A stretch of 64,000 bases of DNA, from the NCBI GenBank assembly GCA_028711065.1, contig JAQTSY010000006.1, positions 213 through 64,212 on the forward strand, in the 5' to 3' direction. The notes below the pieces were generated by a model that ran no database searches, was not told where the DNA came from, and was given only the letters and a program-made list of their open reading frames with translations. Both the position numbers and the translations under genes were made by a program. Each line of letters opens with the position of its first letter. Position 1 is the first letter of the stretch. This DNA is from Minisyncoccota bacterium (GTDB lineage: Bacteria; Patescibacteriota; Minisyncoccia; Phycocordibacterales; JAQTLZ01). Shown here in pieces: positions 4,936 through 61,507 of this stretch.

Positions 4936-5673
4936 ATGAGCGATAAATTTAGTCCAATTGGGATAGCGGTTTTTCTTGTGTTATTTGTTGGAATAGGTTT
5001 TCTTTTGTATCGAGGAATTAGTAAAAATCCGAATCCGACACCGAATGTAACAGCGACAGCGACTCCTTCGCCAAGCCAACCCGCTTCTCCTATTACTTCT
5101 CAAAAAACATCAAATACTATGGTAACTCTTAAAACAAGCATGGGCGACATCGTTCTCGAACTTTTCGCAGATAAAGCGCCAAAGACAGTAGATAATTTTA
5201 TCGCTCTCGCCAAAAAAGGATTTTACGATGGCACGAAATTCCATCGAGTCATCAGAGATTTTATGATCCAAGGAGGCGATCCTCTTTCAAAAGGCGATGA
5301 TACGTCTCGTTACGGCACTGGCGGTCCGGGGTATACATTTTCTGATGAGATAAATGCAGAATCTCTCGGTCTTTCCGCTGACGCGATCGCACAACTTGTG
5401 GCTATGGGATATAAATTCCAAACTGACATCACTTCAGTCCATCTCACGCAAGGTATTATTGCCATGGCTAATTCTGGTCCGAATACCAACGGGAGCCAGT
5501 TCTTTATTGTTACCGCGAAAGCAACGCCTTGGCTTGATGGGCATCACACTCCGTTTGGAAAAGTTGTTTCTGGCCTAGATATTGTGCTCGCGATAAGCAA
5601 AGTAAAAACCGGCCCGAATGATTTGCCGGTTACTCCTGTGGTTGTGAATCAGGTTGTGGTGGGGGCGAAGTAG
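4936..5673 (+). CDS. Peptidyl-prolyl cis-trans isomerase, cyclophilin type, with N-terminal membrane anchor and Pro/Thr/Ser linker
   Basis: [15 protein letters not shown]...[12 protein letters not shown]...[13 protein letters not shown] is the cyclophilin core. There is an N-terminal TM helix and a low-complexity [16 protein letters not shown] linker. Confidence 0.85.
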
Positions 5674-5686
5674 ATCGTATAACGAA

Positions 5687-5828
5687 CTTTTCAAAAACCC
5701 AGAAAACTGCCCCAGCGGGCAGTTTTCCTTGTGCTGGGCGCCGGCTGCTTTGTGGTATAGTTTTTGCCCGAAGCAAAAATTACACCACAAAGACCATGCC
5801 AGCCTGGCGTGCGCGGGTTTTTGAAAAG
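5687..5828. repeat. Copy A of a ~142-nt structured intergenic element (outer 14-bp inverted repeat, 10-bp terminator-like hairpin, 86-nt conserved core)
   Basis: The outer inverted repeat is cttttcaaaaaccc (5687-5700) paired with gggtttttgaaaag (5815-5828). The inner hairpin is aaaactgccc-cagc-gggcagtttt (5703-5726). The core 5729-5814 differs from 28165-28250 at only 2 of 86 positions. Confidence 0.8.
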
Positions 5829-5919
5829 TTGTTATTCGATCTTGTGGTGTGTCTGGTGAGTTTTGAAAAAACAGATCTTATCTTTTTCGTGATTTTTGCG
5901 ACAAAAGGAAAGTGTTATA

Positions 5920-7272: not shown

Positions 7273-7312
7273 TTTTCCAGCATTATGTAAATTGGAGCCG
7301 ACAGCTTTGGGT

Positions 7313-8167
7313 CTATCTTTGAAACCCTGCTAGAAAATCTTTGTAACTCATCTCCTTTTTTCCTTCGGGAATGATGCGGAGAATTTCGAATTTTCCTTCC
7401 TTGAAAGTCGCTTCTTTGATCACAATACGCATCTTTTTCCCATTTCTTTCCATAAAGAAATATGTCCCGGGCCAGCCGTAATATGCTCTGAATTTTCGAT
7501 AATTTTGTATGGGATCGTCTGCGAGGTCTAGAAGTCCGTCCTCTTTTTTGATCTTTTTGCAGAGCGTTGCCTTGTTATCGTCTTGTTTTTCAAATGAAGC
7601 AGTACCGTCGGCGATCTTTCCCACAGCTTTTACTAAAAGTTTTTTTGCAATCTCGTTGAGGCGATTTCGAAGCTCCGGTGCTGTTTCTTTTTCACCAATG
7701 CGCACTTCTTCTTTTTCGATTACGTCTCCCGCATCAAGCTCATATACCATTTTCTGAATTACGACTCCTGTCATATCGTCACCATTTAAAATCGCTGATT
7801 CTACTGGAGTAGCTCCTCGATATTTTGGGAGAAGCGAATAGTGGACATTTATCATCCCAAGACGGGGGAGTTCCAGAAGTGCTTTAGGCAAGATTTTTCC
7901 GTATGCAACCACAATGCCGAGGTCAATGTCATATTTTTTAAATGCTTCGAGAAATTGCGCATTAATTTTTTCTGGCTGAAAAGCGGGGATATTTTTTTGT
8001 TCCGCCCAAATTTTAGGTGCAGGTTTTTTTACAAGCATCTTTCGTCCCTGCGGTTCATCTTTTCCTGTGACAATAACTTTCGGGAGAAGGTCGGCGCTTT
8101 GAAGCTCTTCGAGAATTGGTAGAACAAGCTCCGGCGTGCCAAAAAATGCAATATTGAGTTTAGGCAT
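7313..8167 (-). CDS. fmt: Methionyl-tRNA formyltransferase
   Basis: IAFFGTPE...INVHYSLLPKYRGATPVESAILNGDDMTGVVIQKMVYELDAGDV matches Fmt. It overlaps def in the typical def-fmt operon arrangement. Confidence 0.9.
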   Translation of the reverse strand: MPKLNIAFFGTPELVLPILEELQSADLLPKVIVTGKDEPQGRKMLVKKPAPKIWAEQKNIPAFQPEKINAQFLEAFKKYDIDLGIVVAYGKILPKALLELPRLGMINVHYSLLPKYRGATPVESAILNGDDMTGVVIQKMVYELDAGDVIEKEEVRIGEKETAPELRNRLNEIAKKLLVKAVGKIADGTASFEKQDDNKATLCKKIKKEDGLLDLADDPIQNYRKFRAYYGWPGTYFFMERNGKKMRIVIKEATFKEGKFEILRIIPEGKKEMSYKDFLAGFQR

Positions 8168-10764: not shown

Positions 10765-12300
10765 TCAGAAACTCTGAAGTATGCTGATATTTGCTCCTAT
10801 TTTGTTGAGCCTATTTGCCAAGTCTTCATAACCGCGATTGATGCTGTATACATTTCGAAGAATGGATGTGCCTTCAGCCGCGAGCATTCCAATGAGAAGA
10901 ATTGCCGCTGGACGAAGCGCGGGAGGACAGATAACTTCAGCTGCTTTTAATTTTGTCGGACCGTTTATGTAACAACGATGAGGATCGGCAAGAATGGTGT
11001 CAGCTCCCAACTTGTCGAGGTCTTTATAATAGATTGCGCGTTTTTCATAGCTCCAGTCGTGGATGAACGTCTGGCCTTCGGCCTGTGTGGCAATGACAGC
11101 GAAGAAGGGAAGATTATCCATATTGATTCCCGGATATGGCTGGGCGTGGATTTTATCTTCGAGGGCTCGCAACTTGGACGGATATGTTTCAATGTCGGCA
11201 AGATTGGTTCTTTCGTTCTCTGCCTTGTATCGGCGAAGAATTTTATAACGAAAGCCCATCTTTTCCAGTTTCAAAAGTTCAAGCTCCAAAAAATCAATCG
11301 GACATCGCATAATTTGAATTTTTGATTTTGTGACGATTGCAGCGGAGAGAAGGAACATTGATTCAATAGGATCTTCGCTCACTGCGTAGATGATCGGCTT
11401 GTCTATAGATGCAACGCCGTGAACGACAAGCGTAGATGAGCCGATTCCGTCGATCTTTACTCCAAGCGCTTCGAGGAAGAAGCAGACGTCTTGGACTTGA
11501 TAGTTCGCGGAAGCAAATTTTATCGTCGTCTTGCCGGGAATTAAGCTTGCTGCCATGATCGCATTTTCTGTCACAGTATCTCCAGCTTCGTACAAAACAA
11601 TATTTCCCGGTTTTACTTTTTCAGTTTTAATCTCGTAATAGGTCGAGTGTGTGTCTATCTCCACTCCCATTTTTTCGAGAGCATAAAAATGAGGTTTGAC
11701 GGTTCGAGAGCCAAGACGGCATCCGCCTGGCTGGGGGAGACGGAATTTCTTGAAAAAGTGAACAAGGGGGCCGATGAGCATGATAACGCTTCGGGTCTTC
11801 ATTCCAGCTTCAGTATCGAGTTTTTTAATGTCGAATTTTGCAGGAGGTTTAATTTCAAGATCATTGCCGTCCCATTTAATTCCCACACCGATTGACTGAA
11901 GCACCTCGATCATTCTGTACGCCTCTTCGATCTTCGGCATATTGCGGAGAATTGTTTTATTTTTGTTGAGGAGCGATGCAGAAAGAAGTCCCATCGCCGA
12001 GTTTTTTGAGGATTTGGTTACTATGGAGCCTGAAAGCTTTCTTCCTCCTTCGATGCGCAGATTCAAGGAGCCCGTAGAAAGATTTATGATTTCTTTATTG
12101 AGAGCCTTTCCGATTTTTGAAAGAGTTTCAGTTGAGAGATTTTGTTCGCCATTTTCAATGCGGGCAATAGCGCTTTGGGTAGTGCCAAGCATTTTGCCAA
12201 GCTCTGACTGGGTGATTCCCCGGTCATCGCGAAGCCTCGCAATGAGGTTTCCTATCTGGACGAGCTTTTGGTCGCCTTCTGGTTCTTTAGTAATTGGCAT
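10765..12300 (-). CDS. murA: UDP-N-acetylglucosamine 1-carboxyvinyltransferase fused to an N-terminal XRE-family helix-turn-helix domain
   Basis: Residues ~16-70 (LIARLRDDRGITQSELGKMLGTTQSAIARIENGEQNLSTETLSKIGKAL) form an HTH_XRE domain. They are followed in frame by a complete MurA (RIEGGRKLSGSIVTKSSKNSAMGLL..., catalytic Cys in PQPGGCRLGSRTVKPH, about 430 aa). Confidence 0.85.
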   Translation of the reverse strand: MPITKEPEGDQKLVQIGNLIARLRDDRGITQSELGKMLGTTQSAIARIENGEQNLSTETLSKIGKALNKEIINLSTGSLNLRIEGGRKLSGSIVTKSSKNSAMGLLSASLLNKNKTILRNMPKIEEAYRMIEVLQSIGVGIKWDGNDLEIKPPAKFDIKKLDTEAGMKTRSVIMLIGPLVHFFKKFRLPQPGGCRLGSRTVKPHFYALEKMGVEIDTHSTYYEIKTEKVKPGNIVLYEAGDTVTENAIMAASLIPGKTTIKFASANYQVQDVCFFLEALGVKIDGIGSSTLVVHGVASIDKPIIYAVSEDPIESMFLLSAAIVTKSKIQIMRCPIDFLELELLKLEKMGFRYKILRRYKAENERTNLADIETYPSKLRALEDKIHAQPYPGINMDNLPFFAVIATQAEGQTFIHDWSYEKRAIYYKDLDKLGADTILADPHRCYINGPTKLKAAEVICPPALRPAAILLIGMLAAEGTSILRNVYSINRGYEDLANRLNKIGANISILQSF

Positions 12301-12446: not shown

Positions 12447-13457
12447 ATGGGATTTTTCGCTCCAAAACTTGGAATTGATTTGGGTACGGCTAATACCCTT
12501 GTTTTTGTACCCGGAAAAGGCGTCGTATTGAACGAGCCCTCTGTTGTCGCGGTTTCGGAGGACAATCGCATTCTCGCTGTCGGTCTTGAAGCAAAGCATA
12601 TGGTGGGAAGAACTCCTGATAGCATTACCGCATATCGTCCGATGAAAGACGGTGTTATTGCAGACTATAGAGTGACGGAGGCGATGCTTCGCTATTATAT
12701 GAAGAAGGCTCTCGGCAAATGGAATGTCTTTAAGCCTGAAGTAATGGTCTCTGTTCCTGCGGGAGTTACTTCCACCGAACGCCGAGCTGTCATTGAAGCT
12801 GCAATAAAAGCAGGGGCGAAAAATGTGTATGTGGTGAAGGAACCAATTCTCGCTGCAATCGGCGCCGGCATTCCAATTCACGAAGCTCGCGGGCACATGG
12901 TGGTTGATATTGGAGGAGGAACGACTGACGTTGCCGTCATATCTCTGGGAGGAATTGTTTCTTCAATTTCTGTAAAATGCGCCGGCAATAGAATTGATTC
13001 TGCAATTGCCGATTATATTAAAAAAACGTTCAATCTTTCGATTGGAGATAAGACCGCGGAGGATATTAAAATTCAGATCGGCTCGGCGGTGCCTCTTGAT
13101 GAAGAGCTTACTATGATGATAAAAGGGCGAGATTTTGTGACAGGACTTCCTCGTTCAGCAGAAATGAAGACCAATGAGATCGTGAAAGCGATTTCTCGCG
13201 AGCTTCGCGATATGGTGAAAGCAATGAAAGATGTGCTTCAGGAAACGCCCCCGGAGCTCGCCGCAGACATTATTGATACCGGAATAATTCTTACAGGAGG
13301 CTCTTCGCTTCTTCGCAACATTGCCGAACTTGTGTACCGTCGCACGGGAGTGAAAGCACATGTCGCCGAGGACGCGCTCTATTGTGTGGCGAAGGGAACT
13401 GGAATTGCGCTGGAACATCTTGAAACGTATAAAAAGAGTATCTTGGCGAAAAAGTAG
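12447..13457 (+). CDS. mreB: Rod shape-determining protein MreB paralog (actin-like ATPase)
   Basis: GIDLGTANTLVFVPGKGVVLNEPSVVAV... and DIGGGTTDVAVISLGGIV are MreB motifs. A -35 TTGTAA / -10 TACTAT pair ends 7 nt before the ATG, so the transcript is probably leaderless. Confidence 0.85.
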   Translation: MGFFAPKLGIDLGTANTLVFVPGKGVVLNEPSVVAVSEDNRILAVGLEAKHMVGRTPDSITAYRPMKDGVIADYRVTEAMLRYYMKKALGKWNVFKPEVMVSVPAGVTSTERRAVIEAAIKAGAKNVYVVKEPILAAIGAGIPIHEARGHMVVDIGGGTTDVAVISLGGIVSSISVKCAGNRIDSAIADYIKKTFNLSIGDKTAEDIKIQIGSAVPLDEELTMMIKGRDFVTGLPRSAEMKTNEIVKAISRELRDMVKAMKDVLQETPPELAADIIDTGIILTGGSSLLRNIAELVYRRTGVKAHVAEDALYCVAKGTGIALEHLETYKKSILAKK

Positions 13458-13703
13458 CTCCCCACGAACTTTTCGGAAAACAGAATAGTTTCCCCTGCGA
13501 GAAAACTTTCCTCGCGCTCAGCTCACGGCTGTCAATGAGCCCCGCTTCTTACAGAGCGGGGTCGTTGACAGACCATGCCCGTGGCTTCCGCGATGTTTCC
13601 CAAAAGTTGCGGGTCGCTTCTCGTTGCGATTGCTTTTTCATATTCTAAGTGGTACTTTGATTTTGGAGTTAAAAGAGAATTCACCCAAACAAAGGAGGCG
13701 CAC

Positions 13704-21916: not shown

Positions 21917-22978
21917 ATGAAAGACCTCATTAAAAAAATTAAGCGATATTTCTCAAACGATATTGGTATTGATTTGGGTACTGCAAACACGCTTGTGTAT
22001 GTTCGCGGTCGCGGAATTGTCATCAATGAACCTTCTGTTGTTGCCGTAAACCAAAAGACGGGAAGAGTGGTGGCTGTGGGAACTCAAGCAAAACAAATGC
22101 TCGGGAGAACTCCCGCACACATCATTGCCGTGAAGCCAATCGTCGACGGAGTGATTTCTGATTTCGAAGTGACTGAAGAAATGATCAGTCATCTTGTTCG
22201 ACTTGCAGAAAAAGAGAATAAAAAAATGCTTGGACCCCGAGTGGTGGTTGGAATTCCGTATGGAATTACGAATGTTGAAACACGAGCTGTAAGAGACGCT
22301 ACAAAAAATGCTGGAGCGCGCGAAGTACACATTATAGAACAACCGATGGCGGGGGCGATTGGAATTCGCTTGCCGGTGAATGACCCGATCGGAAGTATGG
22401 TGGTAGATATCGGCGGAGGCACGTCTGACATTGCTGTCATATCTTTAGGCGGAATTGTCCGCGGGAAAAATCTAAAAATTGCAGGAGATAAATTCAATGC
22501 TGATATTATTTCCTATATCCGAAGCCAATTCAAAATTCTCATCGGCGAAAAGACTGCTGAAAATATAAAAATTTCGATCGGTTCAGCCCAGCCAAACGGC
22601 GCTCCAATGGAGGCGGCTGTGCGCGGAAGAGACCTCATTACTGGGCTTCCACGGGAAGTAATCATCACTGATGAAGATTTGCGTGCTGCCCTCGCTCCTT
22701 CTATCGACCACCTTATAGAATCCGTGAAAGAAGTATTGGAAACTACCCCTCCGGAAATTCTTTCAGATGTTATGCACCGCGGAGTGTATCTTGTTGGGGG
22801 CGGAGCACTTCTTAAAGGCCTTTCGGCATTACTCTCGGAACAATTGAAAATTCCAATTCACGTTGATGATGATCCTCTTACGGCCGTAGCTCGCGGTACA
22901 GGTGTCATTTTGGAAGAGTTGGAAAAATATCGCGAACTTCTCATTCAAAATGAAGACGAGTTGCCCCCAAAGAGATAA
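21917..22978 (+). CDS. mreB: Rod shape-determining protein MreB (operon copy)
   Basis: GIDLGTANTLVYVRGRGIVINEPSVVAV... and DIGGGTSDIAVISLGGIV are MreB motifs. It heads an mreB-mreC-mreD-mrdA cluster. Confidence 0.9.
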   Translation: MKDLIKKIKRYFSNDIGIDLGTANTLVYVRGRGIVINEPSVVAVNQKTGRVVAVGTQAKQMLGRTPAHIIAVKPIVDGVISDFEVTEEMISHLVRLAEKENKKMLGPRVVVGIPYGITNVETRAVRDATKNAGAREVHIIEQPMAGAIGIRLPVNDPIGSMVVDIGGGTSDIAVISLGGIVRGKNLKIAGDKFNADIISYIRSQFKILIGEKTAENIKISIGSAQPNGAPMEAAVRGRDLITGLPREVIITDEDLRAALAPSIDHLIESVKEVLETTPPEILSDVMHRGVYLVGGGALLKGLSALLSEQLKIPIHVDDDPLTAVARGTGVILEELEKYRELLIQNEDELPPKR

Positions 22979-27953: not shown

Positions 27954-28112
27954 ATGTCACAGGATAAACTCATAAAACTCATTTGCCAGAACTGTAAGCG
28001 CGTAAACTACTGGTCCACAAAAAACAAGAAATCTGTAGAGCGAAAAATCGAGCTCAAGAAGTTCTGTAAATGGTGCAAAAAGAAGACCATCCATAAAGAA
28101 GGCAAGAAATAA
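27954..28112 (+). CDS. rpmG: 50S ribosomal protein L33
   Basis: The 52-aa product MSQDKLIKLICQNCKRVNYWSTKNKKSVERKIELKKFCKWCKKKTIHKEGKK has a Cys4 zinc ribbon and the L33 pattern. It is shorter than 60 aa, so it is absent from the ORF track. Confidence 0.8.
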   Translation: MSQDKLIKLICQNCKRVNYWSTKNKKSVERKIELKKFCKWCKKKTIHKEGKK

Positions 28113-28121
28113 CTCGAAACA

Positions 28122-28265
28122 GTCTTTATGAGACACCAGAAAAATCCCCAGCGGGGATTTTTCTTTGTGCTGGGCGCCGGCTGCTTTGTGGTATAGTTTT
28201 TGCCCAAAGCAAAAATTACACCACAAAGACCCTGCCAGCCTGGCGTGCGCGGTGTCTCAAAAGAC
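28122..28265. repeat. Copy B of the ~142-nt structured intergenic element
   Basis: Outer inverted repeat gtctttatgagacacc / ggtgtctcaaaagac. Inner hairpin agaaaaatcccc-agc-ggggatttttct. Core 28165-28250 is 84/86 identical to 5729-5814. Confidence 0.8.
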
Positions 28266-28316
28266 AGTTTCTCGCTCGTGGTGAATTCAGAGAATTGTGA
28301 TATTATCTAGCGCACT

Positions 28317-28390
28317 GGGTCCATAGTTTAATGGTAGAACGACGGTCTCCAAAACTGTAGGTCGAGGTTCGATTCCTCGTGGGCCCGCCA
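28317..28390 (+). tRNA. tRNA-Trp (anticodon CCA), CCA end encoded
   Basis: Acceptor stem gggtcca/tgggccc, D-arm gttt..gaac, anticodon loop cuCCAaa, T-arm cgagg-ttcgatt-cctcg, discriminator G, then CCA. Confidence 0.85.
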
Positions 28391-28487
28391 AAAAACAGCG
28401 TTAGCGTTTTTTGAGCGAGCCCAAGAAAGCCATAAAGATAGCTTTCGGCGAGGAATCGACCGATACTCCTCGTGGATCATCTCAAAT

Positions 28488-28521
28488 TATATTAAAAATG
28501 ACCGCGGGCTTTTGCGGTCAT
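28488..28521 (-). terminator. Rho-independent terminator of the minus-strand hypothetical gene
   Basis: On the minus strand the hairpin atgaccgc-aaaagccc-gcggtcat is followed by TTTTTAATAT. Confidence 0.55.
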
Positions 28522-28548
28522 TTTGCTATCCACTATGTTTTGAAACGA

Positions 28549-28845
28549 TTACGGCAACGGACTGAGATCCTGCGGAACGAGTTCGTTCCAACGAATCGGA
28601 TCTGTCGGAATTCCCAATTCTTCCGGACGCACCATCTCCACTTGCAATCTCGGTGACGTAATGTCACCATGCGTGGAAATTGTTTTGTCCTCGAAAACGG
28701 GGAAACAGTATGTCGTGCCTTGCCCGCCGCGTGTAGAGGCAAAGTAAATCTGACCCTCCGCGCCATAACGGAAGAAGCCACAGGCTATCTTTCCGTATTC
28801 TTCCCAGCAGATGCCAATCACCTGCGGTGCTTTCAGTTGGTTCAT
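28549..28845 (-). CDS. Hypothetical protein in a GC-rich islet
   Basis: The RBS GGGAGGA lies 7 nt before the ATG. A terminator sits downstream and GC is above 50%. The overlapping + strand ORF is taken to be its shadow. Confidence 0.5.
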   Translation of the reverse strand: MNQLKAPQVIGICWEEYGKIACGFFRYGAEGQIYFASTRGGQGTTYCFPVFEDKTISTHGDITSPRLQVEMVRPEELGIPTDPIRWNELVPQDLSPLP

Positions 28846-28966
28846 GTACTATCCTCCCATGAGTTAATCCCACAAGCATATAACACTAGTAACTACATTA
28901 AGTCAAATCTCTAGAACTTTTGAAAAAGTTTCTTGCCTTCCGTTACCCGAGCGATAGAATGGGGGT

Positions 28967-30115: not shown

Positions 30116-30208
30116 GGAGTGGGTTGGGACCCGCTCCGCAAGACCTTGAGCGTTCTGTAATCAGAATGTGAAAGGTGTACAGCTCCTGTAAGGAGAAAAT
30201 TGACGTCA

Positions 30209-30239
30209 AAAACCGGTGAAGACTTGCTTCACCGGTTTT
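30209..30239. terminator. Bidirectional terminator (13-bp perfect stem flanked by an A-run and a T-run) between convergent genes
   Basis: aaaaccggtgaag-acttg-cttcaccggtttt. Confidence 0.7.
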
Positions 30240-30255
30240 GATCCTTATTTTCATT

Positions 30256-33355: not shown

Positions 33356-33374
33356 AATATCTTGAATAGGAATC

Positions 33375-33414
33375 CCCTCGGTGTACTCATTGCGCACCGA
33401 GGGTTCTTTTTTTG
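33375..33414 (+). terminator. Rho-independent terminator
   Basis: ccctcggtg-(11-nt loop)-caccgaggg followed by TTCTTTTTTTG. Confidence 0.7.
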
Positions 33415-33541
33415 TTGAAAAAAGAATCGACCCTTACAGGGAGTAGTATCCTGATTGTTTTTTTATTAAGAGAATCGGTCACAAGTCTTTTTCTGCTGAA
33501 AAAGCTCGCGACCCCGACTCAGCGCCCATGCGCTTCCGTCT

Positions 33542-33614
33542 TTCGATTCTCTCTCCCGCACCAAAGACAGGGTTTTCCCTGTCTTTGGTTTTTGTGCCGG
33601 GAGAGAGAATCGAA
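33542..33614. repeat. Long composite hairpin formed by the tRNA-Leu 3' end and an inverted copy of it downstream
   Basis: Outer arms ttcgattctctctcccg (33542-33558) and cgggagagagaatcgaa (33598-33614) pair perfectly over 17 bp. Between them lies the inner perfect hairpin accaaagacaggg-tttt-ccctgtctttggt, followed by TTTTT on the + strand. Confidence 0.75.
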
Positions 33615-33676
33615 CTCTCATGGATTGCTCCGCACGATTTTGAGTCGTGTGCGTCTACCAATTCCGCCATCCCGGC
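33595..33676 (-). tRNA. tRNA-Leu (anticodon CAA), long variable arm; CCA not encoded
   Basis: The minus-strand sequence is gccgggatggcggaattggtagacgcacacgactCAAaatcgtgcggagcaatccatgagagttcgattctctctcccggca. The acceptor stem is gccggga/tcccggc and there is a class II variable arm. Confidence 0.85.
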
Positions 33677-36338: not shown

Positions 36339-36376
36339 GTCCTCATTGTACTTTTTGGTGGGAAAAAGTCTAATGA

Positions 36377-36410
36377 GCCAAAAAACAGCCTTAAAAGGCT
36401 GTTTTTTGGC
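36377..36410. terminator. Palindromic terminator (14-bp perfect stem containing A6/T6 tracts) downstream of topA
   Basis: gccaaaaaacagcc-ttaaaa-ggctgttttttggc. Confidence 0.7.
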
Positions 36411-36475
36411 TAGAGAATAGCGTTCTGGTATTGTCTTCGGTCACAGATAATTTCCTCACCCATGTTCGGAAATTT

Positions 36476-36499
36476 CCGCGACCCCGACTCGCGGTTTTT
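36476..36499 (+). terminator. Orphan + strand intrinsic terminator in the topA/rel intergenic region
   Basis: ccgcga-ccccgac-tcgcgg followed by TTTTT. There is no + strand CDS upstream of it. Confidence 0.45.
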
Positions 36500-36571
36500 G
36501 CTTCTGCAAAAACATCGCTCCGTCTCACCAAAACCAGTTGCGCATGTGGCGTAGGCCACATGCTTCCGTAC

Positions 36572-51441: not shown

Positions 51442-51588
51442 CAAAATTTCCAGAGGAAATTTTCTGTCCGAAGTAATGGGGATTACTTCGGCAGGGAATC
51501 GAAGCCTGTTTGAGTATTTACTGAAAGTAAATCCAAACAGGAAACTGCTCCTGTAAGGAGCGATACTCCCTGTCCCCCAGCCAACTCG
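51442..51588. repeat. Highly structured 130-nt segment bracketed by the tRNA-Gln 3' end and an imperfect direct repeat of it (att-like)
   Basis: The tRNA 3' end is cgattccctgtcccccagca (51424-51443). The repeat is cgatactccctgtcccccagcca (about 51566-51588), this time with CCA. The interval contains four stable hairpins. Confidence 0.7.
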
Positions 51589-51639
51589 CGCCAGGTTATC
51601 GCGCTCGAGATGCGTCGATAATCGGTAAAATAATTAATT

Positions 51640-53293: not shown

Positions 53294-56200
53294 ATGAAAC
53301 TTGCAACACAGAGCGGTCGTCATTCCTTTGTTTGCAAAGTGGTTTTTTGTGTTGCCTCAGTTTTTTTTGTAGCTGCGCTTATTAAGCCCACTACAACTTT
53401 TGCAGCTGCGAGAACTGCCTCGGTTACTGGTAACTGGAGTAATACTGCCACGTGGGGAGGCAGCTCTGTTCCTGGAGCTAGCGATACAGTTACTATCAAT
53501 TCAGGTGTCATCGTCACAGTAGACGTAACCTCCTCTGCAACTTCTATTACATTTCCAACAGCATCTGCTGCTACAAAATTAGTCATCAATTCTGGAGTGA
53601 CACTTACTGTCTCCGGCGCGGTAACTATCCCTGAAGGGTCGGGTGCGGGTAACAATACCCTCGCTGTAGGTTCCGGAACCTTGGTTGCCGGAAGTGTCGC
53701 CTTTACCAATGCGGCAAATGCCAAAAAACATTCGATGTCGATATCCACAGGCACGGTAACTGTCTCGGGTGCAATTTCTATTGACGGCTCAAATAAAAAA
53801 AGCCCCAATGTATCAATCACTGGTGCAGGAACCCTAAACGTGGGCGGGGCATTTTTTACTGGCTCTAACAACACAGGGCTTATTACTACTTCTTCAGGAA
53901 GCACGATAAATTACAACGGTTCGGGAGCTCAAACGGTGAAAGCCGCTACGTATACCGGAAATCTAGTTCTTTCCGGAAGCGGAGCAAAATCTATCAGTGC
54001 GTCTAATGTTACCGCTACGACTGCTAATTTGAGTATTGCTCCCGATTCGGGCGGAGCCACTGCCAGTATGACTGGATCACTTACCGTGGGGACCCTCAAA
54101 CTTGCTGGGGTGGGAAAGGCGAGTGGTACTTACGGTAGTACTTCATCTTCAGCAACTACCAAAACCAATACCTATTTTGCTGGAAGCGGACTGGTAAGTG
54201 TCACCACTAGTACTGTGGACACGACCGCACCAACTATTTCCAATGTTACGTCAGCACTCGCCAATGGAACGTACAAAGCGGGACAAGTTATTGATATTGA
54301 TGTTACATTTTCAGAACAAGTCACTTCTACGGGAAATGTGACGGTAAATCTTGATACCGGCAGGAGTTGCACGTTTACTGTGAGTGCTGCGACGACAGGA
54401 ACCTGCAATTACACCGTACAGGCCGGTGACACCTCAAGCGATCTTACTGCTTCATCCATTAGCGGAACCATTGCGGACACGACTGGGAATGCCATGACCA
54501 ACTTTACTCCTGCTACGAATCTCGCTGCCAACAAAGCAATCGTTATTGATACTACCGCACCGACGGTTTCTTCCGTGACGTCTTCCACATCAAATGGCAG
54601 CTACACCACTGGCGCGACCGTTTCCATCCAAGTAAATTTTTCTGAAGCGGTGAATGTTACCGGCACGCCGCAACTTACCCTACAAACCACTTCCACTACT
54701 ACTCGAGCTTTAAACTATGTGTCAGGAACTGGCGGGACAGCACTTACTTTCACCTATTTAGTCCAGGCGGGCGATAACTCCAGCGATCTTGACTATAGTG
54801 CGACGAGCGCACTTGCTCTCAATAGCGGTACCATAAGCGATACGGCCACGAATGCCGCCACGCTTACACTTCCAACCCCGGGATCGAGTCACACTGGTTC
54901 ATTGAGCAACACCTCTGCGATTGTTATTGATACGACCGCGCCGACAGTTGTGAATGTCACCTCATCAAATGCCAACGGTAATTATAAAGCAGGGGAAGTG
55001 ATAGCGGTGCAAGTTGTTTTTTCAGAGCCTGTGACAGTGAGCAACACTCCGCACCTCGTGCTCCTTACCGGGTCTCCGGCAACCAAAAATGTCGGCTATT
55101 CCTCCGGTTCAGGTTCTACCACTCTTGAATTCGACTATACGGTCGGAGCAAACAACTTCACTTCTGATCTCGAATACGCCTCGGCCGGAGCGCTCTCCAC
55201 CAGTAATTCGGGTTCGGCTTCTACAATTCAGGACGCTGCTGGCAATGCCGCGACGATCACCCTTCCGACTCCAGGCACAACAGGCTCTTTAGGCTATAAC
55301 AAAAACATCATCATTGATTCCACCGCTCCGACGGTCACCCTTACCTCCACCTCAACTTCTCTTACAAATGTTCCCATTCCTGTCACCGCTCGATTTTCTG
55401 AAGCAGTCACTGGGTTTACATCGGGAGATGTTTCTGTGATTACGAGTAATGCCACGGTTGGGAGTTTTGTGACCGTCTCTAGTTCGACATATACATTTGT
55501 AGTTACGCCAACCGGACAGGGTCTAGTGAGCATTTCTATTCCAGGTAGCGCTGCGACTGATATTGCGGGAAACGCAAACACCGTTTCAAACACACTTTCT
55601 CGCACCTATGACAGCGTCGCTCCGACAGTTGCGCTCACCACTTCAACCGTTTCCCCGACACTAACAACGCCAATAAGTTACACCGCGACTTTTTCTGAAG
55701 CAATGACCGGATTTACCGTCTCGGATATTACTGCAACCAATGCGACCGTCGGTAATTTTCATACAGTGTCGAGCCAAGTGTACACGTTTGATGTCTCTCC
55801 TATTAGTAATCCTATAGACAACGTGGATGTCTACACGTCCGTGGACGCCGGGAAAGCCACGGATGCGGCAGGAAATGCTAATACCGCATCAGACAGCGGA
55901 GTTCCCTCCTATATAAGATTTGATAACCACAGCCCCACTGTCGCACTCACATCGTCGGCCGGAGATTTTGTCAATGCGCCTTTTTCTGTTACCGCGACAT
56001 TTGCTGAATCAGTTACGGGTTTTGTTCTCGGTGATATTTCTGTTACGCATGGCACGGCAGGAAGTTTTACTCCTGTTTCCGGTTCTGTTTATACGTTCAC
56101 GGTGACACCGACGAGCCAGGCCCTTGTTTCAGTCTCTGTTGCGGCTGGAGTTGCGCAAGATAATGCACTGAACGCAAATCTTGCCTCGAACGTATTGCAA

Positions 56201-59200
56201 ACGACATACGACACTGGCGCCCCTACGGTGGTTCTTAGTACGGCTCAATCGAGTCCTACCAATGTCTCACCAGTTTCTGTGACGGCGACTTTTTCTGAAA
56301 CTGTCACAGGATTTACGGTAGATGATATTTCTCTCACAAATGCTACGGCAGATAATTTTCTTGGATCCGGTACAACGTATACATTTGATGTTACTCCTTC
56401 GGGTCAAGGTGCCGTGACAGTGAGTCTTCCCGACGGAAGCGCAATTGACGTTGCAAATAATAACAGCACTGTATCGAACACGCTGTCGTTTACTTACGAT
56501 ACCGTTGCTCCGACGCTCACTGAGGACACGCCAGTTCCAGCGCTGACGACGGACACCACGCCGAATTATTCATTCAGGACTAATGAAAACGGAACAATAA
56601 CCTACGGCGGGAGCTGTAGTTCTGGAACTTCTTCTGCGCTTGCTTCTGCCACCACAACTGTCACTTTTAATACTTTGGCGAATGGCAGTTATAACGACTG
56701 CTCTATTACTGTTACAGACGCTGCAGGAAATGCGAGCTCGCCTCTTATAGTTCCTGCTTTTACGATCAACAATAGCGATCCAGTTGTCATCTCATATTCA
56801 CCAGCGAACAACGCGACCGGTGTTTTGGCTAATGCCAATCTCATTTTGACCTTCGATAAGGTTGTTACTGCGGGAACGGGAAATATTTATTTGAAGCAAG
56901 GAGGAACTACGATCGAGACTATTGATGTAACGAGCGGGCAGGTGACAGGTTCTGGTACAAATATTATTACGATTAATCCAACCACGACGTTAAGCAGTCA
57001 GACCACCTACACTATTCAAATAGATATCAATGCATTTCATGACTCATTCGGGAATGGCTATCCAGGAATCTCTGATAATACGACATGGAGCTTTACCAGT
57101 GCCGATACGGTCGCACCTACAGTAAGCTCTCTTTCACCGGCAACTCTTGCTACAGGAGCACCCGTGCATTCCTCGCTTGCAATTACTTTTAGTGAAAATG
57201 TTATTGTCCAAAGCGGGGGATTCGTGACGATCCGCAAAGCCGATAATTCTGTAGTAGAAGATATTTCTGTGACAAGCGGCGAAGTGACTGGATCGGGCAC
57301 GAGTGTGATACTCATAACTCCGAGCGTTACTTTGGATGGCTTGACGAACTATCACGTTACCGTAACCGCGACCGCGTTTGCAGATAGCGCCGGAAATTAT
57401 TACGCCGGAATATCTGATGCCACCACCTGGACATTTCAGACACTCGATACCTCGAATCCTTTCGTCACAGCATTTTCACCTGCCAATTTTGCAACGGGAG
57501 TTTCGGCGACCGCGAACTTGGTTATGACGTTTGATAGAGCGGTCTATGTGGAAACGGGGACTACTACCATTAAGACCGGGGGTTCTACTGTTGAATCAAT
57601 TGCTTTGACTGATGGTACTAAAGTGACGGGCTCGGGCACAAATACTATCACCATTAATCCCGCCACGACCTTGAGCAGCCAAACGACCTATTACATTCAA
57701 ATTGATGCTGGCGCGCTGAATGACTCATCGGATGGCTTAGGTAATCCATTTGATGGAATTTCTGATACTACCACCTGGACTTTTACCACACTTGATACCA
57801 CCAATCCAACGCTTTCTTCTATTGCTCTTTCTTCGAACAATACACTTTCTTCGTCATTAGCGAAGGCGGGAGACACGATGACACTTTCATTTGTTGCAAG
57901 TGAAAGCATTTCTACACCAACGGTGAGCTTTACTTCTGGGGGTGTGTCGGTTGCCAATGCTGTGTCAGTTACAAATACCACCGGTAACAATTGGATCGCT
58001 TCATATACAGCTAGTTCTTCTGACACAAATGGAGCAGTAGCTTACAGCATCAATACCTATCACGATACAACTGGAAATAATGGTTCAGCATACACAAGCG
58101 GAACAGGTTCTGTGACATTTGATAAGACTGTGCCAACACTCTCATCTGTAAACCTGGTTTCCAATAATTCCACCAACACGAGAGCGAAAGTGGGGAACCT
58201 CATCACTCTTTCATTCACTTCGAGCGAAACAATTTCTACTCCAGCAGTAAGCTTTACTTCAGGTGGGGCACCGGTGACAGGCACTGTAACAGTCGCTTCT
58301 TCAACGAATAGTTGGACAGCTACGTACACCATGAGTTCTTCTGACACGGCGGGCAGTATTGGTTACAGTATAAATACTTTTCACGACAATGCAGGGAATA
58401 ACGGTGATGCAGTTACAAGTGGAACAGGGAGCGTGACCTTCGACAAAACCGTTCCGACTCTGTCTTCTGTCACCCCTGCTTCTTCTGCTACGATTAGTAA
58501 TGTAACCTCGTCTTCCGCTATCGCTTTCACTTCGAGTGAGGCCTTGGGGAGCGGTTCGGTTACCATTACCAGAAGCTCCGGAGCAGCCGATGGCACAGTG
58601 CATACTTGTACGCTGAAAGGCACAGCACTCGATGCGGGCGCTCACATCATTGATCTTTCTGATACAACCAATAGCTGTACCTTGGATGTTTCTTCTCTCG
58701 TTTCTGGCACTGTTTACACATTTGTGTTTGCCGGAAGCGATCTTTCGGGAAATGCAGCAACGTCTGTGACGAGAACGGGTATCATTTTTGACACCACTGC
58801 GCCTACGCTTTCATCCGTCACTCTCGTGTCCAGCAATTCCACAAACACGCAAGCAAAAGTAGGCGATGTTATAACACTTTCGTTTACGGCAAGCGAGACT
58901 ATCTCTCTGCCGACGGTAACTTTTTCTTCCGGCGGTGATCCTGTGAACGGCTCTATTGTTGTGAGAAATCCATCTGGTAATAATTGGACAGCCACCTATA
59001 CAGCGGGTTCTTCTGATACAGAAGGAAGTGTGACTTACCGTATCAGTGATTTTTCAGATAGTGTCAGCAATGCCGGCTTGGCGGTAACAACTGGAAGCGG
59101 CGGCGTTACCTTTGATAAGACAGTACCCACCATCACCAATGTCACCTCGTCAAAAGCCAACGGTACCTATTCTGTCGGTGAGTCGATTCCTATAAACCTT

Positions 59201-61507
59201 ACTTTTTCCGAAGCCGTCACTTCCGACGGAGAGGTGACCGTAACACTTGATACGGGAAGGACCTGCGTCTTTTCTCTCACCTCTGACACATCAGGAAGCT
59301 GCAATTATATAGTTCAAGACGGAGATTCGTCGAGTGACCTCAACGTCACTTCTATTCTAGGAACCATTTCGGATGTTGCGGGCAATGCACTGACTAATTT
59401 CACTCCGGCAACAAACCTCGCGGCCAATAAAGCCATTGTCATCGACTCAACAGCACCCGACACAAGTATTCCTACTATTACAGATGTCACTTCAACAAAA
59501 GGGAACGGCTCGTATACTACTGGAGTATCGATTGATATTCGCGTGACATTTTCTGAATCTGTGAGCTCTACGGGCAATGTGACGGTCACTCTTGATACTG
59601 GCGGAACCTGCTCATTCAGCGTGGCAACGAGCTCTTCCGGCAGTTGTAATTATGTCGTGGGTGGAGGTGAGACTTCTTCCGATCTTACCGTTACATCAAT
59701 TTCCGGGACCATAAAAGATGCTGCAAACAATACTTTGGTGGATTTCAATCCTGCAACAAATTTAGCAGATAATAAGGCGATTGTTATTGATACGACGATA
59801 CCAATCCTCTCTTCCGTTACCCCAGCGTCTTCCGTCACTATAGATAACGTCACATCATCTTCTTCGATCGCATTTACTGCAAGTGAGAGCTTAGGAAGCG
59901 GTTCTATCACCATCTCTCGATCTTCTGGAGAAACCGATGACACGATCCATACCTGTACGCTCAAAGGTACAGCACTCAATGCCGGCGCACACACCATTAA
60001 TCTTTCTGATACCACTAACAGCTGTACTTCAAATGTTTCAGACCTAGTTTCAGGTGCAGTTTATAGTTTTGTGTTTGCTGGAAGCGATTTGGCTGGGAAT
60101 CCTGCAGACCCTGTTACGGGCGACGAAGTTACCTATTTTATTACTGTGCCTGTTGTAGATGTAGCGGGTATCACTGTCACAGGTACTGGAGATGCAACCA
60201 CTATTAGTGCCGATGGAGGGACTCTCCAAATGCTTGCGAGTGTTCTTCCTGGAGACGCCACAAATTCTTCCGTGACATGGAGTATTGTTTCGGGAGGCGA
60301 CTTCGCTTCAATTGATGGAGATGGTCTTCTTACTGCCACAGGAAACGGGGAAGTTACTGTTCGAGCGACAGCAAACGATGGGTCAGAAGTATACGGTGAA
60401 CTTATTATTACCATAAGCGGGCAGACAATCCCTACCACTCCTGTTTCTGGCATTACAGTCACTGGTACTGGAGATGCAACAACGATTACTGATGCTGGCG
60501 GTACTCTTCAAATGTTAGCGGATGTACTGCCGGTTGATGCCACTGATTCATCAGTCACATGGAGTATAACTACCGGCGGAGACAACGCTTCTATTGATGC
60601 GGACGGCCTTTTGACTGCGATTGCAGACGGGGAAGTTACTGTTCGAGCGACAGCAGATGACGGATCGGAGGTTTACGGAGAACTTGTTATCACAATTACA
60701 GGACAGACAGTTTCTACACCGACACCGACCCCAGAACCGACAGCCACTCCTACCCCTGATCCAACCCCAACCCCTACTCCTGATACAACTCCAACACCTG
60801 ATCCAACTCCGACGCCAACACCGACTGCAACCCCAACCCCAACACCAACGAGGACGCACGCAAGAGCTTCTTCGGGCGGTTCTTCAGGTGGTGGCGGAGG
60901 AGGAAAAGCCCATGCCTTGAGCAATCCCGTATTTTGTACCTCAAATATCTATCCAACCAAGCTAATAAAATTCGGTGTGAAAAATGATCCCGAACAAGTA
61001 AAACTGCTCGAACGTTATTTGAATGCCTTTGAAAACGCGAAATTACCAGTTAATGGTGTGTATTCAAAAGATGATATGTCCGCCTTTATTCTCTGGCAGA
61101 AAAAATATGTACCCGAAGTATTAAGGCCATCAGTGAAAATCAATGAGGAGGGCTATGTAGCCACTGCCAGTCTTACCAAATTGAAAACTCTCTTTCTGGC
61201 GAAATGTAAACCTTTTCCGGTCATTGCTCCTCCTGTGTCCAATGCTTTTCCGTCAAAGAAAGCTATACCTTTCGTGTGGAGTCGAGATCTAGAATTTGGA
61301 ACAACCGGCAATGATGTGTTTGCCCTTCAGCAGAGTCTCATTTCCTTGAAGGTGGGCCCGGCGGGCGAAGCTCTGGCAAAGAATGGGCCAACTCATTATT
61401 TTGGGATATTTACACAGCGAGCGCTTATTGAATTCCAGAAAGCAAAAGGAATTACACCGGCAATTGGATATTTCGGCCGCAAAACAAAAATGTTTATTTC
61501 CCTCTAG
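53294..61507 (+). CDS. Giant secreted surface/adhesin-like protein (2737 aa). It has a signal peptide and about 20 tandem Ig-like repeat modules separated by ...DTTAPT... linkers. It also has two Big_2 domains, a Pro/Thr linker, a Gly/Ser tract and two C-terminal peptidoglycan-binding-like domains.
   Basis: MKLATQSGRHSFVCKVVFCVASVFFVAALI...AAA is the signal peptide. The repeated modules of about 95-100 aa start (I/V)DTTAPTV..VTSS.ANGSYK.G..I.I.V.FSE.VTV. Two Big_2-like units are present (VTGTGDATTI.ADGGTLQMLA.VLP.DAT.SSVTWSI). [20 protein letters not shown] linker follows. The C-terminus carries the PG_binding_1-like pattern (TTGNDVFALQQSLISLKVGP...GIFTQRALIEFQKAKGITPAIGYFG). Confidence 0.85.
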   Translation: MKLATQSGRHSFVCKVVFCVASVFFVAALIKPTTTFAAARTASVTGNWSNTATWGGSSVPGASDTVTINSGVIVTVDVTSSATSITFPTASAATKLVINSGVTLTVSGAVTIPEGSGAGNNTLAVGSGTLVAGSVAFTNAANAKKHSMSISTGTVTVSGAISIDGSNKKSPNVSITGAGTLNVGGAFFTGSNNTGLITTSSGSTINYNGSGAQTVKAATYTGNLVLSGSGAKSISASNVTATTANLSIAPDSGGATASMTGSLTVGTLKLAGVGKASGTYGSTSSSATTKTNTYFAGSGLVSVTTSTVDTTAPTISNVTSALANGTYKAGQVIDIDVTFSEQVTSTGNVTVNLDTGRSCTFTVSAATTGTCNYTVQAGDTSSDLTASSISGTIADTTGNAMTNFTPATNLAANKAIVIDTTAPTVSSVTSSTSNGSYTTGATVSIQVNFSEAVNVTGTPQLTLQTTSTTTRALNYVSGTGGTALTFTYLVQAGDNSSDLDYSATSALALNSGTISDTATNAATLTLPTPGSSHTGSLSNTSAIVIDTTAPTVVNVTSSNANGNYKAGEVIAVQVVFSEPVTVSNTPHLVLLTGSPATKNVGYSSGSGSTTLEFDYTVGANNFTSDLEYASAGALSTSNSGSASTIQDAAGNAATITLPTPGTTGSLGYNKNIIIDSTAPTVTLTSTSTSLTNVPIPVTARFSEAVTGFTSGDVSVITSNATVGSFVTVSSSTYTFVVTPTGQGLVSISIPGSAATDIAGNANTVSNTLSRTYDSVAPTVALTTSTVSPTLTTPISYTATFSEAMTGFTVSDITATNATVGNFHTVSSQVYTFDVSPISNPIDNVDVYTSVDAGKATDAAGNANTASDSGVPSYIRFDNHSPTVALTSSAGDFVNAPFSVTATFAESVTGFVLGDISVTHGTAGSFTPVSGSVYTFTVTPTSQALVSVSVAAGVAQDNALNANLASNVLQTTYDTGAPTVVLSTAQSSPTNVSPVSVTATFSETVTGFTVDDISLTNATADNFLGSGTTYTFDVTPSGQGAVTVSLPDGSAIDVANNNSTVSNTLSFTYDTVAPTLTEDTPVPALTTDTTPNYSFRTNENGTITYGGSCSSGTSSALASATTTVTFNTLANGSYNDCSITVTDAAGNASSPLIVPAFTINNSDPVVISYSPANNATGVLANANLILTFDKVVTAGTGNIYLKQGGTTIETIDVTSGQVTGSGTNIITINPTTTLSSQTTYTIQIDINAFHDSFGNGYPGISDNTTWSFTSADTVAPTVSSLSPATLATGAPVHSSLAITFSENVIVQSGGFVTIRKADNSVVEDISVTSGEVTGSGTSVILITPSVTLDGLTNYHVTVTATAFADSAGNYYAGISDATTWTFQTLDTSNPFVTAFSPANFATGVSATANLVMTFDRAVYVETGTTTIKTGGSTVESIALTDGTKVTGSGTNTITINPATTLSSQTTYYIQIDAGALNDSSDGLGNPFDGISDTTTWTFTTLDTTNPTLSSIALSSNNTLSSSLAKAGDTMTLSFVASESISTPTVSFTSGGVSVANAVSVTNTTGNNWIASYTASSSDTNGAVAYSINTYHDTTGNNGSAYTSGTGSVTFDKTVPTLSSVNLVSNNSTNTRAKVGNLITLSFTSSETISTPAVSFTSGGAPVTGTVTVASSTNSWTATYTMSSSDTAGSIGYSINTFHDNAGNNGDAVTSGTGSVTFDKTVPTLSSVTPASSATISNVTSSSAIAFTSSEALGSGSVTITRSSGAADGTVHTCTLKGTALDAGAHIIDLSDTTNSCTLDVSSLVSGTVYTFVFAGSDLSGNAATSVTRTGIIFDTTAPTLSSVTLVSSNSTNTQAKVGDVITLSFTASETISLPTVTFSSGGDPVNGSIVVRNPSGNNWTATYTAGSSDTEGSVTYRISDFSDSVSNAGLAVTTGSGGVTFDKTVPTITNVTSSKANGTYSVGESIPINLTFSEAVTSDGEVTVTLDTGRTCVFSLTSDTSGSCNYIVQDGDSSSDLNVTSILGTISDVAGNALTNFTPATNLAANKAIVIDSTAPDTSIPTITDVTSTKGNGSYTTGVSIDIRVTFSESVSSTGNVTVTLDTGGTCSFSVATSSSGSCNYVVGGGETSSDLTVTSISGTIKDAANNTLVDFNPATNLADNKAIVIDTTIPILSSVTPASSVTIDNVTSSSSIAFTASESLGSGSITISRSSGETDDTIHTCTLKGTALNAGAHTINLSDTTNSCTSNVSDLVSGAVYSFVFAGSDLAGNPADPVTGDEVTYFITVPVVDVAGITVTGTGDATTISADGGTLQMLASVLPGDATNSSVTWSIVSGGDFASIDGDGLLTATGNGEVTVRATANDGSEVYGELIITISGQTIPTTPVSGITVTGTGDATTITDAGGTLQMLADVLPVDATDSSVTWSITTGGDNASIDADGLLTAIADGEVTVRATADDGSEVYGELVITITGQTVSTPTPTPEPTATPTPDPTPTPTPDTTPTPDPTPTPTPTATPTPTPTRTHARASSGGSSGGGGGGKAHALSNPVFCTSNIYPTKLIKFGVKNDPEQVKLLERYLNAFENAKLPVNGVYSKDDMSAFILWQKKYVPEVLRPSVKINEEGYVATASLTKLKTLFLAKCKPFPVIAPPVSNAFPSKKAIPFVWSRDLEFGTTGNDVFALQQSLISLKVGPAGEALAKNGPTHYFGIFTQRALIEFQKAKGITPAIGYFGRKTKMFISL

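Follow-up and report, generated by a model that had tools for sequence, protein, structure and literature searches.

Small palindromic repeats at the ends of bacterial genes have been described from several lineages. REP sequences are 20-40 nt long, bear a GTAG or CGTC head, are highly repeated and go with a RAYT transposase gene, and REP/BIME have been linked to termination and to the protection of mRNA 3' ends. Correia elements end in 24-bp inverted repeats of conserved sequence, are flanked by a duplicated TA target and reach hundreds of copies per genome. Integron attC sites and the ends of IS200/IS605 and REP/RAYT elements are folded single-strand hairpins that are recognised by shape. 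CPR bacteria (Patescibacteria) have tiny genomes, and to our knowledge few mobile elements and almost no characterised non-coding RNAs have been described from them. The MITE-like Correia/NEMIS repeats of Neisseria (107-155 bp) are intergenic, often lie at gene ends and vary between strains, and the 5' and 3' ends of their transcript pair into a long stem at which RNase III is proposed to cut; small co-transcribed, hairpin-forming intergenic repeats that act on mRNA through RNase III thereby have a precedent (PMC2229807).

The element considered here occurs three times (copies A, B and C) in the window, the whole 64,000-nt stretch of DNA that was analysed. It is built of modules: a copy-specific closing stem, a terminator-like hairpin (hairpin 1), a long hairpin with an unpaired ACCAUGC, and a short conserved 3' tail. 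Our tentative reading, held at somewhat under even confidence, is that copy B belongs to a lineage-restricted, uncatalogued modular family of dispersed non-coding palindromic repeats in Paceibacteria (CPR), either tolerated or serving as a terminator or 3'-end structure. The family is loosely like REP/BIME, ERIC and Correia/NEMIS, the closest known kinds, without their conserved termini and target duplications. As with Correia/NEMIS, the element is ~150 bp long, lies at gene ends, has a long stem made by its paired ends and is variably present; unlike Correia, its terminal stems differ between copies, it has no duplication and three copies in 64 kb, and its interior is branched with a terminator-like hairpin. 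With the REP/BIME/REPINs of proteobacteria it has in common that it is palindromic, extragenic and placed past stop codons, with modules in varying combinations (other hairpin modules of this genome also recur in different combinations), but its unit is branched and ~155 nt long, with no GTAG/CGTC head, high copy number or RAYT. ERIC/IRU, a ~127-bp imperfect palindrome of enterobacteria that is transcribed with its neighbours, is likewise present or absent at orthologous intergenic sites; ERIC is conserved along the whole unit including its ends, whereas here just the core, the hairpin-1 loop and the tail are conserved. attC sites are shape-recognised imperfect palindromes of 57-141 nt that lie directly past the stop codon of a cassette ORF, in fixed orientation and by variable gene content. 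The position of our element is alike, but it has no R''/R' core sites, cassette arrays or integrase in the window, and it has a conserved 86-nt core that is absent from attC.

Assignment to several of these classes could be rejected. Small size, a non-coding nature, multiple copies (three in 64 kb) and absence at B's and C's sites in a relative are MITE-like. By the criteria of classical MITEs of the Correia, ERIC or RUP type, the terminal inverted repeats are not conserved in sequence (50%/48% identity between the arms of A and B) and the stems of A, B and C have no bordering direct repeat that could be a target-site duplication, which removes that class. No transposase, integrase, recombinase or reverse transcriptase domain was found among the window ORFs, which do include DprA and topoisomerase I. 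REP/REPIN fails for want of the head and of any Y1/HUH transposase domain in these ORFs. The AAC/GTT at the stem ends of A, B and C, missing in the copies from loci L162 and L136 of other genomes, recalls attC; the full stem ends, GTATAAC/GTTATTC (A) and TCGAAAC/GTTTCTC (B), do not fit the R'' (RYYYAAC)/R' (GTTRRRY) consensus. An integron was dismissed because the copies are single, among housekeeping genes, with no integrase domain in the window; their neighbours are rpmG and tRNA-Trp (B), cyclophilin and an aminotransferase (A), and mreB and a 170-aa ORF (C). The topology resembles the a1/a2, msr and msd of a retron, but there is no RT domain anywhere in the window.

Copy B occupies 28116-28271 of the + strand, excluding its tail. 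The preliminary description had put it between rpmG (L33) and tRNA-Trp and had put both A and B directly 3' of a stop codon in the orientation of the upstream gene, and both statements hold (rpmG, 27954-28112; tRNA-Trp, 28317-28390; gaps of 5 nt for A and 3 nt for B). The 5' arm of B's closing stem (GAAACAGTCTTTATGAGACACC, 28116-28137) begins 3 nt past the rpmG stop codon (28110-28112) and pairs in both RNA and DNA folds with the 3' arm (GGTGTCTCAAAAGACAGTTTC, 28251-28271). Between the arms lie hairpin 1 (AG-AAAAATCCCC-AGC-GGGGATTTTT-CTT, 28138-28165) and the core (28166-28250), which has a basal helix and a long apical hairpin with the unpaired internal loop ACCCUGC. Outside the stem, the tail TCGCTCGTGGTG (28272-28283) is common to A (TCGATCTTGTGGTG) with the pattern TCG[AC]TC..GTGGTG, and copy C, like related elements from other genomes, also has TCGCT 3' of its stem. 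Copy A with its tail covers 5679-5849 (+), starting 5 nt past the cyclophilin stop codon (5671-5673), and is flanked by the cyclophilin gene (4936-5673) and a class V aminotransferase (SufS-like) gene. Its parts are the 5' arm (5679-5700), hairpin 1 (5701-5728), the core (5729-5814), the 3' arm (5815-5835) and the tail (5836-5849).

An 85-nt core pattern matches the window twice, both times on the + strand (5730-5814 and 28166-28250, two mismatches), with no match in shuffled sequence, and a repeat finder picks the same pair (family D4). In a model-based alignment, 84 of the 86 core positions are identical. The alignment and the minimum-energy folds agree with the initial claim that the 86-nt core has just two differences, both unpaired: G in A and A in B in the apical loop (CCCGAAG vs CCCAAAG), and A in A and C in B in the 7-nt internal loop (ACCAUGC vs ACCCUGC). 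The outer-stem and inner-hairpin sequences quoted for the two copies were found as written, and the closing stems are longer than was first given, at ~21 bp in A (5679-5700 with 5815-5835) and ~20 bp in B, each with one irregularity at equal depth. A and B take a common Y shape of closing stem, 5' hairpin (hairpin 1) and long 3' hairpin with the 7-nt internal loop. Their fold energies are -83.1 and -81.7 kcal/mol, compared to approximately -42 to -44 for shuffles (z ~ -10; none of 200 shuffles as good), and nine pairs differ on both sides between A and B yet still pair.

Hairpin 1 of copy B has the appearance of a bidirectional intrinsic terminator, its G+C stem lying between an A-tract and a T-tract, and a terminator-like hairpin is present in each of A, B and C. 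The sequences fit a G+C-rich stem-loop followed by a T-run (B, AAAAATCCCC-AGC-GGGGATTTTTCTTT; A, AAAACTGCCC-CAGC-GGGCAGTTTTCCTT). A simple terminator scanner did not call hairpin 1, probably because A/T pairs extend the stem into the T-run. Bidirectional intrinsic terminators occupy the same positions in related genomes; unlike a plain terminator, which needs neither, hairpin 1 here is accompanied by ~130 further structured nt and enclosed by the closing stem. A small toxic peptide was also considered. Copy B has a 22-codon ORF (MRHQKNPQRGFFFVLGAGCFVV), but copy A lacks the ATG, and because a 1-nt indel in hairpin 1 shifts the frame, no reading frame is conserved between the two.

A covariance model built from A and B only matches the window at 13457-13618 (52 bits, E ~4e-12), revealing copy C. 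This diverged + strand copy, delimited by the model and by folds, spans 13461-13620 including the tail (13461-13613 without it), with a 5' arm (13461-13481), a degenerate hairpin 1, a core with ACCAUGC, a 3' arm (13595-13613) and the tail TCGCTTC. Its stem begins 3 nt past the mreB stop codon (13455-13457), so that A, B and C all begin 3-7 nt 3' of a stop codon. Sampled loci of related genomes (the L-numbers used here) comprise 80 Paceibacteria loci anchored on MurA homologues and further loci fetched by exact protein. A model from A, B and C (R2) finds a copy in L162 (37.5 bits) and in L214 (47.9 bits), both from Paceibacteria genomes whose MurA is 64%-76% identical to that of the window, and L136 holds two weaker copies, one without the apical hairpin, which have the inner part in common and not the outer stem. 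Family matches thus occur in 3 of ~90 related loci (1.45 Mb searched). A model from five copies (A, B, C, L162 and L214; R3) adds no new copies over the 1.45 Mb, R2 run without speed filters finds no further copy in the window, and a structural descriptor for Y-shaped inverted repeats found no further convincing members in 1.35 Mb. The few matches across 1.45 Mb and the window thus show a family that is real, but thinly and unevenly spread.

In the five-copy alignment, neither CCCC.GCG.G at the hairpin-1 loop nor the unpaired ACC.TGC of the core varies, the core motif being ACCAUGC in every copy but B (ACCCUGC). Closing stems measure 18-30 bp across all copies, with roughly 20 bp typical and several perfect over 19-22 bp, and the arms of L162, L214 and L136 are unrelated in sequence. 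Wider searches yielded no known family. An exact 31-mer of the core has no match in one genome per species (GTDB), core motifs have none in viral contigs, and blastn found no match among plasmids and phages. A gapped pattern on the G+C-rich basal helix gave 120 matches in metagenome contigs, which were discarded as chance matches in G+C-rich DNA. Rfam at gathering thresholds reports just three tRNAs in the whole window, and the best score in a permissive scan of 28050-28330 is 22 bits where the threshold is 90 bits, and comes from a microRNA model that matches the hairpin generically. Literature searches turned up no account of an element of this kind from CPR bacteria. The LysS, aminotransferase and MurA proteins of the window have their best matches in MAGs labelled Candidatus Pacebacteria or Paceibacterota.

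The five copies allow the proposed selection on structure to be examined by covariation. Standard pairs are formed by 93.5% of alignment cells, and 43 of the 61 predicted pairs change on both sides and still pair (36 of 61 with three copies). Shuffles give 21.6 +/- 2.8 such changes, with 0 of 500 reaching 43, and sliding partners by 1-3 columns gives 8-14; the alignment was fitted to the model's own structure, which favours it, but the margin over both controls is large. All five helices covary, core helices included, and the 43 both-side changes indicate that the Y-shaped fold is conserved, within a family analysis that is underlain by only five to seven copies of this element (type I). The initial claim of selection on secondary structure rather than on sequence therefore stands as far as the fold is kept by paired changes. 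The contrast between A and B is not simply a product of selection: core helices vary freely in C, L162 and L214, and hence selection for shape cannot hold the A/B core at 98% identity with arms at ~50%.

This contrast is better described as a mosaic of modules. A and B are 98% identical in the core, 82% in hairpin 1 and 50% and 48% in the 5' and 3' arms, respectively; A and C are 34%, 54%, 65% and 57% identical in the same parts, so that copy A combines C-like arms with a B-like core. The arms of A and C have the 11-mer ACGAACTTTTC in common, at unrelated loci, and differ by a compensated 2-bp indel (GG/CC). The hairpin-1 23-mer of copy B (AAAAATCCCCAGCGGGGATTTTT) is identical in L214, whose core and arms differ. 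At the locus of copy A in L208, where MurA is 84% identical, an 18-nt remnant matches A's 3' arm and tail (GAAAAGTTGTTATTCGAT), from which it follows that this arm is old at its locus. Together with the mosaic, the old arm argues that the A/B core was recently copied or gene-converted between family members, and, with the 11-mer that A and C have at unrelated loci, that arms are inherited and not remade at each site. Where two paralogues show covarying stems around a conserved core, caution is thus in order, since the pattern may come from recombination of modules and not only from long-term selection.

The nearest available relative, represented by two assemblies (GCA_028714635.1 and GCA_028711105.1), has LysS 99% and MurA 98% identical in protein and DNA 80%-91% identical to the window; on these values the two are a related species, not a strain. 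At the homologous rpmG/tRNA-Trp spacer the relative has no copy B, only a plain terminator (AAAAAGAGCCCACGAGGGCTCTTTTTT) of the same form as B's hairpin 1, which answers the earlier question of whether homologous loci are empty. After tRNA-Trp, it has cupin and methyltransferase genes in place of 28391-28966 of the window. At C's site its mreB and holB lie 4 nt apart, and the window has 860 nt inserted there, made up of copy C together with a terminator and a 170-aa ORF that matches DUF5680 weakly. At A's site the relative lacks the aminotransferase and has another kind of structured element (190 nt, z -7.6), whose closing stem of 30 bp begins at the stop codon. The 3' arm of that other element persists in the window just 3' of copy A, as a remnant (GTGAGTTTTGAAAAAACAGATCTTATCTTTT, 5857-5888, +) orthologous to the 3' arm of the A-site element in the relatives L206 and L208. 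The alignment of window and relative has six breaks, and A, B and C lie at the left edge of three of them, followed by the SufS-like gene (A), the replaced segment (B) and the 170-aa ORF (C). Modular, structure-conserved elements at gene ends hence differ between related genomes and in three cases coincide with edges of gene content. Most other genomes have a small membrane-protein ORF at the Fmt/HPF site, which is that of the L162 copy, and several sampled genomes (L145, L156, L161 and L171) have a plain bidirectional terminator there. Orthology of copy A to the L162 copy (both HPF-Fmt) was rejected, as most genomes hold the small membrane-protein ORF and a plain terminator at that place. The aminotransferase gene is flanked by a short direct repeat, ATCTTATCTTT/CTATCTTT (5874-5889 and 7310-7320); its closest homologues are 84% identical and stand in other gene contexts in other Patescibacteria, which suggests that it was horizontally acquired.

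A second type of element (type II), which includes the one at A's site in the relatives and has the core motif TTTTCACGGAAAAT...ATTTTCCTAAAAG, lies directly 3' of stop codons on the - strand of L206 (15055-15255), L208 (15236-15412) and L136 (3726-3916). Its closing stems, 18-30 bp long, differ from copy to copy, its tail is the TCGCT of type I, and it obeys the type I rule of a common core and copy-specific arms: the 18-bp arms in L208 are unrelated, and those in L136, after mreB, are perfect over 21 bp and followed by TCGCT. For all three type II copies, the strand antisense to the upstream gene gives the better fold, by 7-13 kcal/mol.

The type I fold is about equally stable on both strands, as RNA and as DNA (single-stranded DNA folds, z -12.5 and -10.8 on the two strands). 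A, B and L162 show no strand preference in folding, copy C gains 14 kcal/mol when folded as antisense (7-14 kcal/mol for C and the three type II copies together), and the L214 copy is antisense to both of its neighbour genes. On its antisense strand, copy C depends on G.U pairs for a proper hairpin 1. In nine copies of both element types, 16 G.T pairs favour the sense strand, compared to 29 A.C positions, which would be G.U on the antisense strand.

Evidence on the origin of the arms points two ways, to inheritance and to copying of the adjacent gene end. Several arms read AAAAA-GC...GC-TTTTT, which makes an origin from terminator stems attractive. A scheme in which the arms are the stem of the host terminator, with the core inserted in its loop, was rejected, since the TCGCT tail lies outside the arms at unrelated loci and the A/C 11-mer would go unexplained. 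One arm in L214 spans the last 8 codons of a gene, and stop codons fall inside the arms of the L162 copy and the L206 element. The tRNA-Leu gene of the window (33594-33676, - reading) has the 3' end TTCGATTCTCTCTCCCGGCA, then a plain terminator, then an inverted copy of that end (GTGCGGGAGAGAGAATCGAA; the repeat finder pairs 33542-33568 with 33588-33614, -), and then a structured core and a partial direct copy (GATTCTCT). As a tRNA sequence cannot be shaped by the repeat, this arm must have been copied from the gene; another possible source of the arrangement is an integration into the tRNA gene that left a scar. With arms copied from gene ends in these cases, templated copying at hairpins may contribute to arm complementarity.

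Under the preferred reading of a dispersed repeat family, the unit would be co-transcribed with the upstream gene and hairpin 1 would end most transcripts; those that read through would take the full Y fold, which would block 3' exonucleases or offer RNase III about two helical turns for double-strand cleavage. RNase III signals such as those of Correia/NEMIS and the phage T7 intercistronic regions need about two turns of double-stranded RNA, which the predicted closing stems of 18-30 bp would provide. We propose that, with hairpin 1 terminating and the Y fold acting at the 3' end, the element replaces the host terminator at little cost. Modules would move and be homogenised by recombination among family members and imported DNA, and not by cut-and-paste of a fixed unit; the mosaic is what suggests this route, which would explain a core common to A and B without common arms. 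Some points sit awkwardly with the scheme. Efficient termination at hairpin 1 would leave most transcripts unable to form the closing stem, and its strict maintenance would then need another reason; simple gene conversion is hard to square with the short homology 3' of the core; the 16 vs 29 count does not single out the sense strand; and copy C has its better fold, and the L214 copy lies, in antisense.

Other explanations were considered. A functional structured RNA, either an element of the 3' UTR that binds a protein or a small RNA excised at the ~20-bp closing stem, would have ACCAUGC and the hairpin-1 loop as recognition sites and the closing stem as a structural or processing helix free to covary. 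Covariation in every helix, unpaired motifs kept across genomes with MurA just 64%-76% identical, constant architecture and stem length, and a tail conserved past a variable stem are all as this predicts, and the G.U-dependent antisense hairpin 1 of copy C suggests selection at the level of RNA (or of a specific single strand). We nonetheless consider such an RNA unlikely, as orthologous loci lack the element even in the nearest relative, its occurrence is rare and sporadic (3 of ~90 related loci, 1.45 Mb), there is no evident promoter and no Rfam relative, the neighbours (a cysteine desulfurase-like gene, tRNA-Trp and a DUF5680-like ORF) have no common function, and the strand signals conflict between copies. 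If it is an RNA element, it offers a handle on transcript ending and processing in CPR bacteria. A site acting as DNA, a folded single-strand hairpin that mediates gain and loss of adjacent accessory genes when its shape is read by a recombinase or HUH transposase whose gene lies elsewhere, would sit well with structure kept while sequence varies, as in attC, with equal single-stranded-DNA stability on the two strands, and with a mix of G.T and A.C mismatches expected of a palindrome without RNA strand preference. The fixed position directly past stop codons, the location of A, B and C at the left edge of segments differing in gene content, and the remnants of older elements stacked at one site also fit. 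It would provide a handle on gene exchange in CPR bacteria. However, there is no recombinase or transposase gene in 64 kb and no attC core site, cassette array, target-site duplication or conserved cleavage motif, and 3 of the 6 content breaks have no type I copy. The island edges can be accounted for just as well by homologous recombination with its anchors in the conserved genes on either side (the window encodes the transformation protein DprA). We therefore think a site of this kind quite unlikely.

It is also conceivable, if improbable, that the element is a mutational by-product without a selected role, in which intra-strand template switching at terminator hairpins makes long stems and keeps palindromes corrected, and the 'compensatory' changes are templated ones. 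The inverted copy of the tRNA-Leu 3' end after its terminator, the arm over the last 8 codons in L214, the stop codons inside the L162 and L206 arms, the stems perfect over 19-22 bp and the compensated GG/CC indel between the arms of A and C would all be natural products of that process. It leaves unexplained the conserved core, unpaired motifs and tail and the recurrence of the architecture in distant genomes, and the A/C 11-mer at unrelated loci and the A arm in L208 show arms that are inherited. A more speculative idea, to which we give very little credence, is an undescribed attC-like or guide-like CPR system outside integrons, with the elements as its shape-recognised sites. A trans-acting protein, be it a recombinase that acts on folded single strands or an RNA-processing or RNA-binding protein, would read the core and tail; the ~20-bp stem would derive from the upstream gene's end or be matched to it; and the system would drive insertion and exchange of the accessory genes directly downstream.

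Other structured regions accompany these elements in the window. Two highly structured intergenic regions on the - strand, 33356-33593 and 36339-36571 (z -8 to -11), have a common motif, GAGTCGGGGTCGCG-[hairpin]-TGTGACCGA, pointing to a third type of repeat here. The region 30116-30255 (+), 3' of the mgsA stop codon, is structured (z -9.8), falls on a break in the window-relative alignment, and has CCGCAAGACCTTGAG...AAAGGTGTACAGCTCCTGTAAGGAG in common with the core of an L136 copy on the opposite strand. A hairpin with a UGUAA loop (YCC-UGUAA-GGR, e.g., GCTCCTGTAAGGAGC) is found in L136 and in three intergenic regions of the window (51443-51639, +, after tRNA-Gln; 30180-30200; and 33435-33447). 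A survey of the cores of A, C, L162, L214 and L136 and of the regions at 33.4 and 36.4 kb found an unpaired CAUG in most (ACCAUGC, GCGCAUGGGCGC, GAACAUGGG), and only copy B has CCUG. As DNA, CATG is often a target of methylation or restriction, and this may or may not matter here.

Several coding features of the window are also unusual. MurA (UDP-N-acetylglucosamine 1-carboxyvinyltransferase, 10765-12300, -) has an N-terminal HTH_3 DNA-binding domain, a fusion seen in all Paceibacteria homologues among the matches listed. There are two mreB paralogues (12447-13457 and 21917-22978), with an 85-nt stretch that is 72% identical in DNA (repeat D7). A 2,737-aa ORF at 53294-61507, probably a large surface protein, has internal repeats of ~100 residues and is followed by 12-nt periodic repeats at 63000-64000 (repeat families D1-D6 and D8).
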